Source: a phage
Direction: 5' to 3' (one strand)
DNA: 64,000 nt
Assembly (NCBI GenBank): GCA_025823825.1
Contig: GCA_025823825.1_4720.1
Position numbers and translations under genes: made by a program. The notes beneath the pieces were generated by a model. That model was not told where the DNA came from and ran no database searches. It saw only the letters and a program-made list of their open reading frames with translations. This document shows, in pieces, positions 32,349 to 34,714 of this stretch (the stretch's first letter is position 1; every line of letters starts with the position of its first letter).

Positions 32349-34714
32349 CGTAGCGTTCAGCATGAGTCGCTACCTCATGCCCGCAGCTTTACCTGCAGCT
32401 TCCGGTGTTACCGGAATGTCCAGAATACATCTTATCCATATTCCAAATGGAACGTAGGACTTCCGCGCTGGATCTCGCTTGAGACCACGTATTCGTTGAA
32501 CGTTCTCCTGAACGGAGCTTCGCTGCTGATCGAACATTGTCATGTACGGTAGGCGTCCCCGAAGGGATTGTCATTGAAGCCGCGTACATCCGCTACCTTG
32601 TTTCTACCTTATCGGTTCCTCTTACGAGGCGTAGCGGCCTTAGCCCTTCCCAGCAATTCACGGAATCCAAGCTCTTCCTTTCGGAAGGCAGGGCCTATGA
32701 TTAAGCATCCCCGTCGCTGTTATCGACTATATCTTCATCCTCGTTGCGAGGAGTCTCCCGTTTTGGTCTGTGTTTAACAGAGCCTACTCTACTCGACATC
32801 GCGTCTTTCGATAGTCTGTGAGCACACATCTTAACGAACATTCGTGGATTCCTAAACAGGTGAACGTTCTTGTTGAGATGCTTCGCTGCGGATTATTCCC
32901 GTCCTACCTCTTTTACCCTACCCAGTTCATTACGCTGGCCCTCATCTGTGTCACCACGATGAGTTGGTGTGTAGTCCGATTACAGAAACTTCCCGTCAAT
33001 TAGAGAGTTTTAACTACGTTCCTGTTACCAGAAACCAGATCCCGACGGTATCAATAAATCAACGTAAGTTATTGATTTAATTGAAAAAACTGAAATCTGC
33101 ATTATCTTAATCTTCAGTATGGTTCGCTACTCCATACCCGTACGTCATGTACTGCTTACGTCTTTCACGTAAGAAGAGACTATATCTTTCACCCTCAGCA
33201 TTATCTGGTCGGGGCTCCCATTTCGGCGGTCAGATGACCGGTGGTTTCCCACGCCGCTTGGCCCTAACGCCCGTAAGCGATAGTCGTTGAGCGCATCTCC
33301 GTTCTGGAGACTTCGCTGCGGATTCCCCAATCCTTGCCGCTTTTACCATACCTGAATGATTAGTTCAGCCCCACGCTCTGTTCCCAGGCGTGGTTGGTGG
33401 ACAAGGCTCTAAGTAGGTTCCCGCATTAGAGAGTTCTGCGTGACAACATTTCTGCGTTACTGGGCCTAACGACCCTTTCAAGATCATCACGCTTAACCCG
33501 ATGGTGTTATCCTGCGGATCGCGTTTAACCTTGGTGATTTCAAGACATTGGTTACTGCTTCGGTCAAGTGATGGGTTTCGAACAAAGCCACACACAATCC
33601 CATCGAACGGTGTATCAGCAATAAGCTCATCGTGCAGCTCGCTCATCATTGGATGATAATTACGGACATGTTCCGCAACGAACGCACGTGCTGCTCTCGG
33701 TGAATAACCACGATGGAATAACTTGGATTGGATATGTTCTTTATTGGTTAAAGTAAATGGTGCGTATGGGAAATGCAGATGATAATAACGATGGTTCGCT
33801 GTTATCGAACTGATTACGGTACGCGTGGTGAATGGATGTAATGTACCTAATATGTTTTTACGTGTGATACCTTTCTTCTTACCAATGAACTCATCGAAAA
33901 TTGCTGCGTGGTATTGCAGTAGCTTCAATTGCACTTTCGCCATCCAGTTTTCTTTCTTTCTGGCGCTCAAAGGTGTTGTTGGGTGATAGATACTGTTCAA
34001 CGTACCAATAGCATCGATCGCACCTTCCATTTTGCTATCTGCATAACGACCGGTTGGCGTATTCTCGATAACGAACATCATGGCCGCAGGAAAGCTGATA
34101 TACTGGCTGAAGAACTTATCACGATGGATACGGATGAATTCTCGTAGCGTGTCAACTTTCTCCGTGTTCTTCGGTCCACGTAACGTAGGTCCTTTATACA
34201 AGATCTCCATTATGCGATCGAAGTTCTGTATAAAGCTATTTACGCCGCGACGTATCCCGAATACATCGAATTGCTGCTCCAGATAGTTCTTGAGTTCGAT
34301 GGGTCGTTTTACATTTGGACGGTAACTGGCATCAATGAGCCACGTCATCGTTTCAAAGCTTTTGATATTCAACTCGCTTGCCAGCACGAGATGGACCAAC
34401 GGGTTAATGAACGCATCAATTCCTTCAGGAACACGCGCCCAAACCGTCGAACGAATCTCCTGTTCTGCCGGGTAGGTCACGACCGTTTTACAGTTTGGAC
34501 ACACCGTGCCGAGTAGCTCACCACGATTGTAGAAACCACAACCACATTGTGGTGTGATATCCAACGTATCGCTGGAGTAAACACGGGTGATAAAACTGTT
34601 TAATTTCTTCTTCTCTTCGACGACTTTTGTATCGTAATCATTCAACAAAATCGGCGTAAAAGGAAGTTCTGCGAGCTGTCTATCGAAACTCACGATATCG
34701 AGCATGATGGCCAT
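32124..34714 (-). CDS. RNA polymerase beta-prime subunit, N-terminal piece, interrupted by three group I introns; predicted mRNA join 34714..33472, 33105..33093, 32716..32704, 32348..32124
   Basis: Zinc finger CGCGFYNRGELLGTVCPNC (CxC-x13-CxxC), RNPSLDR ~ RAPTLHR, IGLSVMIL ~ IQLHPLVC. Unspliced ORF ends in junk without the catalytic motif; the join restores ILKG-YNADFDGDA-MNNHIVPD in frame (1494 nt, 497 aa). Confidence 0.6.
32349..32703 (-). ncRNA. group I intron 3 (ORF-less, 355 nt, divergent P7)
   Basis: Third copy: GGUAGAAACAAGGUAGCGG, CAGCAGCGAAG, P7 5' strand GAAUA (32494..32490) with complementary 3' strand UAUUC (32427..32423), two P9-like hairpins, terminal G at 32349. Confidence 0.45.
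32704..32716 (-). CDS. beta-prime-N micro-exon 3 (13 nt, CGACGGGGAUGCU)
   Basis: Completes F then encodes D-G-D-A; ends in U; a UAA follows in frame if unspliced. Confidence 0.45.
32717..33092 (-). ncRNA. group I intron 2 (ORF-less, 376 nt)
   Basis: Second copy of the same core: GGGUAGGGUAAAAGAGG...AAUCCGCAGCGAAG (32923..32881), CACAGACUAUCG with GACUA at 32816..32812, GAAGAUAUAGUCG (32736..32724), terminal G at 32717. Confidence 0.5.
33093..33105 (-). CDS. beta-prime-N micro-exon 2 (13 nt, AUAAUGCAGAUUU)
   Basis: With the preceding U encodes Y-N-A-D and first two bases of F; ends in U. Confidence 0.5.
33106..33471 (-). ncRNA. group I intron 1 (ORF-less, 366 nt)
   Basis: Tetrahymena-type core elements on the minus strand: GGUAUGGUAAAAGCGG...AAUCCGCAGCGAAGUC (33352..33311), P7 5' strand GACUA (33285..33281), J8/7-P7 3' strand AGAUAUAGUC (33187..33178), P9-like hairpins, terminal G at 33106. 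Confidence 0.6.
33472..34714 (-). CDS. beta-prime-N exon 1
   Basis: AGGAG RBS and ATG at 34714; exon ends ...AAA GGG U with U at 33472 as first base of the Tyr codon. Confidence 0.55.

Follow-up and report, generated by a model that had tools for sequence, protein, structure and literature searches.

The DNA studied here, called the window below, is the whole of a 64,000-nucleotide (nt) stretch of phage sequence from contig GCA_025823825.1_4720.1 (NCBI GenBank assembly GCA_025823825.1); Escherichia phage Goslar, a nucleus-forming jumbo phage, is approximately 98% identical to it. Adjoining the nuclear shell protein gene lies the gene for the non-virion RNA polymerase beta-prime N-terminal subunit, which the Goslar annotation calls RNA polymerase beta subunit and which is the orthologue of the non-virion RNA polymerase subunit PhiPA3 gp54 (PMC11077065). 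The codons for its catalytic aspartates, NADFDGD, are split by three group I introns into two 13-nt exons. This report concerns the third of these introns and the helix P7 at its guanosine-binding site. From the gene layout we propose the following order, with scores from the Rfam group I intron model RF00028 and from a covariance model of our own, R1, which is described below.

33472..34714, minus strand: exon 1 of this PhiPA3 gp54-like gene, recognised from its open reading frame (ORF) and translation; ends ...AAA GGG T
33106..33471, minus strand: intron 1, group I, 366 nt; RF00028 32 bits, R1 32.1 bits; boundaries placed from the reading frame
33093..33105, minus strand: exon 2, 13-nt micro-exon AUAAUGCAGAUUU, coding for part of Y-N-A-D-F
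32717..33092, minus strand: intron 2, group I, 376 nt; RF00028 46.9 bits, R1 24.9 bits; the Goslar homologue is annotated Intron_gpI
32704..32716, minus strand: exon 3, 13-nt micro-exon CGACGGGGAUGCU, which finishes F and then codes for D-G-D-A
32349..32703, minus strand: intron 3, of group I, 355 nt and without an endonuclease gene; U32704 precedes its 5' splice site, and its terminal G is at 32349
32124..32348, minus strand: exon 4, beginning ATG AAC AAC CAT and running to the stop codon

Excision of the three introns gives a single reading frame of 497 amino acids with ILKGYNADFDGDAMNNH, and the joined exons encode a protein reading ...ILKGYNADFDGDAMNNHIVPD..., in which the predicted product across the intron 3 site includes the junction stretch DFDGDAMNNHIVPDIWTAK. 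The joined frame is continuous through NADFDGD and matches Pfam RNA_pol_Rpb1_2 at residues 371-428. A 149-amino acid piece spanning the junctions was compared with phage genomes, and in 95 records one place covered at least 80% of it; among the matches listed it aligns as a single unbroken piece with intron-less orthologues, PhiPA3 gp054 included. Intron 3 would thus be inserted directly after the NADFDGD-A codons, and removal of introns 1, 2 and 3 together would restore the catalytic aspartate motif.

The public Goslar record can be read differently, namely that intron 3 is a decayed, non-splicing remnant in which the complementarity within P7 is due to chance or inheritance, and that the 79-codon frame downstream is a separate gene. 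There, exon 4 is annotated as an independent hypothetical protein starting inside the intron (gp185, L001 4636..4875), the polymerase gene is ended inside intron 2, and intron 3 itself, which is present and 98.6% identical (NC_048170 167847-168201), is unannotated. We consider this reading very improbable, as the two 13-nt exons with the codons for the catalytic aspartates are untranslatable alone, an unspliced subunit would be without NADFDGD, and the intron-less orthologues align straight over the junction. No description of introns in the Goslar polymerase gene was found in the literature.

The boundaries 32703/32349 give the in-frame junction ...NADFDGD-A^MNNH..., where ^ marks the splice site. 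Other splice-site registers were considered for intron 3 and for L003-B, the intron at the same site in the Goslar-like metagenomic genome L003, and were rejected for non-canonical ends or a broken reading frame. Intron 3 has a U-G wobble at the cleavage site in P1, read from the sequence, together with a P1 guide, a P10 and the terminal G; its +1:+8 pair is U-A, which in L003-B is A-U. Two-step, guanosine-initiated splicing would be expected, using P1 (GCU^U/AGGC), P10 (AUGA/UCAU) and the terminal G at 32349. The parts of the intron are as follows.

32693..32700, minus strand: internal guide, UCAU with exon 4 AUGA (P10) and AGGC with GCU^U (P1)
32500..32665, minus strand: P3 5' strand (32665..32659), then the P4-P5-P6 domain, whose P5 arm is extended (from model helices, covariation and unconstrained fold)
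32490..32496, minus strand: P7 5' strand A-(C bulge)-G-A-A-U-A, where G32494 is the guanosine-binding G (Tetrahymena G264 equivalent) and A32492 the variant base (C266 equivalent)
32471..32486, minus strand: P7.2 hairpin GGUCUC-AAGC-GAGAUC; the P7.1 of relatives is missing
32461..32467, minus strand: P3 3' strand CGCGGAA (from alignment, model and unconstrained fold)
32436..32457, minus strand: P8 hairpin (from model, covariation and R1)
32428..32434, minus strand: J8/7 UAAGAUG, ending in G; this position (Tetrahymena A306 equivalent) is A in introns 1 and 2
32422..32427, minus strand: P7 3' strand U-A-U-U-C-U, where C32423 pairs with the guanosine-binding G and U32425 is the variant base (G309 equivalent)
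32360..32416, minus strand: P9, P9a and P9b hairpins, with a conserved P9b loop GUAGCGA and a covarying stem

The core helices P3 to P9 and the P3/P7 pseudoknot are all present, every helix being fully paired in the window sequence, and P7 has its G-C pair (G32494-C32423) beside a bulged nucleotide (C32495). Of the two hairpins P7.1 and P7.2 typical of subgroup IA2, relatives carry both, and intron 3 and L003-B keep only the P7.2 with the CAAG loop. There are stops in all three frames of intron 3, the longest listed ORFs inside it being 57 and 66 codons, so that it is not a mobile intron with a homing endonuclease. For the last helix before the terminal G a GUAGCG/CGCUAC pairing was rejected, because the loop GUAGCGA is conserved and the P9b stem that flanks it covaries.

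An earlier, sequence-only reading of this DNA had noted that the third intron carries GAAUA/UAUUC where introns 1 and 2 carry GACUA/UAGUC, and that the altered strands are still fully complementary. Both points can be read directly: the minus strand has GAATA at 32494..32490 and TATTC at 32427..32423, and the equivalents are GACUA 33285..33281 and UAGUC 33182..33178 in intron 1, and GACUA 32816..32812 and UAGUC 32729..32725 in intron 2. In all three introns UCAAC or UCACA precedes the 5' pentamer and AAGAU(A/G) the 3' pentamer. Since the same joiners flank the pentamers, their positions are homologous across the three introns, beyond mere complementarity.

Regular expressions applied to 108 viral introns gave too noisy a set of P7 strands, and a covariance model was used instead. 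A family of viral introns with a common P9a hairpin was collected, and the model, R1, covers the stretch from P7 to the P7 3' strand in 12 members outside the Goslar clade. Over the whole window R1 gave exactly three significant matches, which are the three introns, and the best score was that of intron 3 (36.4 bits, E 4.6e-5). The assignment to P7 made in the sequence-only reading is borne out by this structure-aware alignment: R1 places both pentamers in P7 columns, pairing ACGAAUA with UAUUCU with zero non-canonical pairs. That a model independent of the Goslar clade ranks intron 3 at the top of the three also speaks against a decayed remnant. With Rfam at gathering scores (50 bits for RF00028) no match was found anywhere in the window, introns 2 and 1 also staying below it; in E-value mode RF00028 puts GAAUA on the consensus GACUA columns. 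The sub-threshold score of intron 3, which would otherwise favour the remnant, reflects a limit of the general model.

A weak fourth R1 match (15.7 bits, E 0.5), in which GACCA and UGGUC are complementary, was seen at 27439..27516 on the minus strand. A 380-codon minus-strand ORF (27111..28253) overlaps this match, Rfam in E-value mode finds nothing there, and the match is probably due to chance.

A lone matching double change has a probability of roughly one in three by chance; alone it is weak evidence, and to that extent it leaves room for the remnant. In a MAFFT alignment of 18 members of the family, 100% of P7 cells are paired; C-G accounts for 12 of the third pairs, A-U for three, U-A for two and G-C for one, without a mismatch, the fourth pair is U-A in 15 and C-G in three, and the guanosine-binding pair is invariant (G-C, 18/18). 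The third pair is never mismatched in either of the two alignments counted. Because this column pair varies without mismatch in 18 sequences, the change in P7 goes beyond chance. Within the clade of intron 3 the third pair is A-U, G-C or U-A: L003-B, 90% identical to intron 3, has GAGUA/UACUC, and L003-A, one site upstream in the same genome and 71% identical to intron 3, has GAUCA/UGAUC. The third pair thus appears to be selected for pairing and not for base identity.

Covariation extends well outside P7. The full model of intron 3 runs from P2 to P9b with 94 pairs in 17 helices, and across five clade members 97.4% of its cells are paired. Changes on both sides were found at 28 pairs in 11 of the 17 helices, compared with 7.4 in shuffles and at most two with slid partners. 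The unconstrained fold of intron 3 recovers 12 of the 17 model helices (z = -2.79). Compensatory changes in 11 helices are not what a decayed remnant would be expected to retain. That the third intron is a folding, selected ribozyme, which had been argued from the paired double change, is thus supported, but by the family-wide covariation and the essential host gene and not by the double change alone.

The description of the third intron as a copy or duplicate did not hold up. The three introns share approximately 75-80% identity, and only over core stretches of about 40 nt, and from their sequences they do not appear to be recent copies of one another. Nor would the A-U pair stem from the C-G that introns 1 and 2 carry. 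Since the nearest relatives carry G-C (L003-B, 90%) and U-A (L003-A), it most likely arose from G-C via a G-U wobble, by two transitions. The expected wobble intermediate occurs in L198, which has G-U where the near-identical L179 has G-C.

We would put at about 0.9 the probability that 32703..32349 on the minus strand is a functional phage IA2-like group I intron in a polymerase gene of a Goslar-like, nucleus-forming E. coli phage, with GAAUA/UAUUC as its P7 and an A-U third pair that is tolerated. Several points weigh against this. The RF00028 match to intron 3 in E-value mode is only partial (16.7 bits, model positions 50-157). The three Goslar-like copies of intron 3 are approximately 98-99% identical, so they provide no independent covariation. 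A P3/P4 pattern, used so that the sample was not picked by P7 sequence, yielded 43 distinct introns that R1 confirmed, and all 43 have C-G as their third pair; conservation at this position is thus stronger than in a stem pair free to covary. The predicted P7 duplex is weaker with the variant (-2.5 vs -4.8 kcal/mol), and P1 is short, with three exon base pairs only. Finally, the splicing of intron 3 is itself inferred, from an essential and otherwise broken catalytic motif.

C-G is thus the norm at the third P7 pair. In targeted scans, at least four further, unrelated lineages of phage group I introns (the L152 family, L155, L160/L164 and L173) nonetheless proved to have GAAUA/UAUUC, and a dozen contigs GAGUA/UACUC. 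Other hits of the pattern scans (L154, L159, L161-L163, L165-L172, L174, L175 and many others) were random coding sequence and were ignored.

The short P1 and the weak P7 duplex (-2.5 kcal/mol) also bear on whether intron 3, while folding properly, might fail to be autocatalytic and require a phage or host protein. The absence of P7.1 points the same way, as does the 3' strand of P8, whose own GAAUA (32443..32439) could mispair with UAUUC. We think such a dependence unlikely, though less so than the other alternatives: every element of the catalytic core is present, the sequence demands no cofactor, and phage group I introns of the IA2-like type generally self-splice in vitro. As for the second GAAUA itself, it lies 11 nt upstream of UAUUC and could form a competing 5-bp hairpin with it; against the UACUC of L003-B the same decoy would be mismatched.

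The sequence-only reading had also suggested that the altered pair may affect guanosine binding. In Tetrahymena, whose P7 numbering and A306 triple with C266-G309 are given in PMC9943679, the stretch C262/A263 bulge/G264/A265/C266/U267/A268 with U307..G312 maps one-to-one onto 32496..32490 and 32427..32422, as follows (all on the minus strand).

G32494-C32423: Tetrahymena G264-C311
A32493-U32424: Tetrahymena A265-U310
A32492-U32425, the variant pair: Tetrahymena C266-G309
A32496-U32422 with C32495 bulged: Tetrahymena outer pair with bulge

Intron 3 differs from Tetrahymena in having A-U for C266-G309, G for A306, and an outer A-U with a bulged C instead of C-G with a bulged A. The guanosine-binding G-C, its A-U neighbour and the bulge are all preserved, and GAAUA/UAUUC, the outer A-U and the bulged C would together form the guanosine-binding helix. 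In engineered Tetrahymena ribozymes the sequence of P7 except G264:C311 can be changed if pairing is kept, according to the passage of PMC2860135 that cites Oe et al. 2001 on C266-A268/U307-G309. An effect on guanosine binding is unsupported by these comparisons, and the A-U pair would probably have little effect on catalysis; the weaker predicted duplex is the sole measurable consequence of the variant.

Perhaps the A-U pair and the G at the end of J8/7 are a co-adapted base triple which replaces the A306-C266-G309 layer and alters guanosine binding. In favour of this idea are the Tetrahymena triple of A306 with C266-G309 (PMC9943679), the fact that the pair and the A306 equivalent both differ in intron 3 from introns 1 and 2, and a second A-U intron, L155, which also has G there. 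The examination of three-way covariation gave no association between G at the A306 equivalent and A-U: the base is A in three further A-U lineages, at least 14 contigs combine G with C-G and at least 12 combine it with G-C, and the close relative L003-B has A with G-C. The idea is largely refuted by this, and we hold it to be highly doubtful. With a tolerated A-U pair as the preferred explanation, the P7 feature is textbook group I covariation and nothing new, and intron 3 adds one more case, so far unannotated, to a well-known class.

Among known systems the phage IA2-like introns of RF00028 (T4 td, Twort orf142 and the SPO1 DNA polymerase gene) are similar to intron 3 in P1-P10, the U-G wobble and the terminal G, and they share with it the P3-P8 and P4-P6 domains, the bulge beside the guanosine-binding G-C, and conserved J6/7 and J8/7. 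Intron 3 is unlike them in its A-U third pair for C-G, in having only one of P7.1/P7.2 and no endonuclease gene, and in its sub-threshold Rfam score. Its 5' end, UAAUCAUAGGCCCUG, presumably resembles that of T4 td. Goslar Intron_gpI (HOV27_gs001, with an HNH endonuclease gene) belongs to the same gene and lineage, but its counterpart in the window is the homologous intron 2; it is distinct from intron 3 and sits 13 nt upstream of it. In PhiPA3 an RNA polymerase gene is interrupted by a group I intron that encodes gp210, an HNH endonuclease (Birkholz et al. 2024, PMC11620839). That intron, like intron 3, lies in an RNA polymerase gene of a nucleus-forming jumbo phage and is inserted at conserved aspartate codons; it differs in that the gene is for a beta subunit of another polymerase, the endonuclease is active, and no P7 variant is reported (PMC11620839).

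The two upstream introns and the micro-exons show further features. The guide of intron 2 (CCGUCG-GGAUCUG, 33048..33036) pairs with exon 2 to form P1, and this pairing covaries with the exon: the window has CAGAUUU and guide GGAUCUG, and Goslar (L001 2830..2900) has CCGACUU and guide GAGUCGG. The difference amounts to two compensatory double changes that go together with synonymous codon substitutions. We take this covariation between P1 and exon, read from the two sequences, as strong evidence that intron 2 splices in vivo. The adjacent CCGUCG pairs with CGACGG of exon 3 (P10). Of the 13 nt of exon 2, nt 2-6 are in the P10 of intron 1 and nt 7-13 in the P1 of intron 2; in exon 3, likewise of 13 nt, nt 1-6 are in the P10 of intron 2 and nt 11-13 in the P1 of intron 3. 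The guides of the flanking introns therefore occupy nearly the whole of both exons, and 26 coding nt of the catalytic motif hold three group I introns, an arrangement for which no account was found for Goslar.

Intron content varies among near-identical phages. Three introns, none of them with an endonuclease gene, occur in the window and in L004. Goslar is without intron 1 (blastn), and the 3' part of its intron 2 contains a gene for an HNH/NUMOD1 endonuclease (L001 2827..2830, 3215..4281). In L003 there are only two introns, one at NA^DF and one at DA^M. The last 31 nt (5566..5596) of L003-A (L003 5252..5601) are 100% identical to the 3' end of intron 1 of the window (33140..33110), which suggests that L003-A is chimeric and that introns recombine within the polymerase gene. 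At L003 5611..5632 the homologue of intron 3 follows GAUGCC, with C before the 5' splice site; L003-B thus pairs C-G with its guide rather than by the near-universal U-G wobble, and its +1:+8 pair is swapped from U-A to A-U. Introns of the P9a-hairpin family in L127, L128/L151 and L130 are inserted before UUUGAUGGGGAUGCG, UUGACGGUGACGCU and UUGAUGGGGACGAG, which are further positions in the FDGD-coding sequence. Distinct insertion sites in the polymerase aspartate motif number at least five or six, and the motif looks like a hot spot.

Elsewhere in the window, a G+C-rich hairpin (CCUCCCUUCCC...GGGUUGGGAGG) at 38053..38111 gave weak matches to microRNA families on both strands. It is located at the end of a 364-codon plus-strand ORF (36957..38051) and near the end of a 717-codon minus-strand ORF (38118..40271), and looks like a bidirectional terminator.

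The P7 variant is in itself of little weight, being one more natural case of pairing over identity below the guanosine site. The natural series at this one position (C-G, G-C, G-U, A-U and U-A) can be used for studies of the base-triple sandwich of the guanosine site. The comparison also shows that the public Goslar record leaves an essential polymerase gene in fragments and misses intron 3. For the phage itself, the non-virion RNA polymerase would need the splicing of all three introns in its catalytic motif. The weak, all-A/U P7 with its single G-C, together with the GAAUA decoy in P8, could conceivably make intron 3 a slow or conditional step among the tandem introns, which we regard as quite improbable; if true, RNA folding would time or gate the production of the catalytic subunit of the polymerase.

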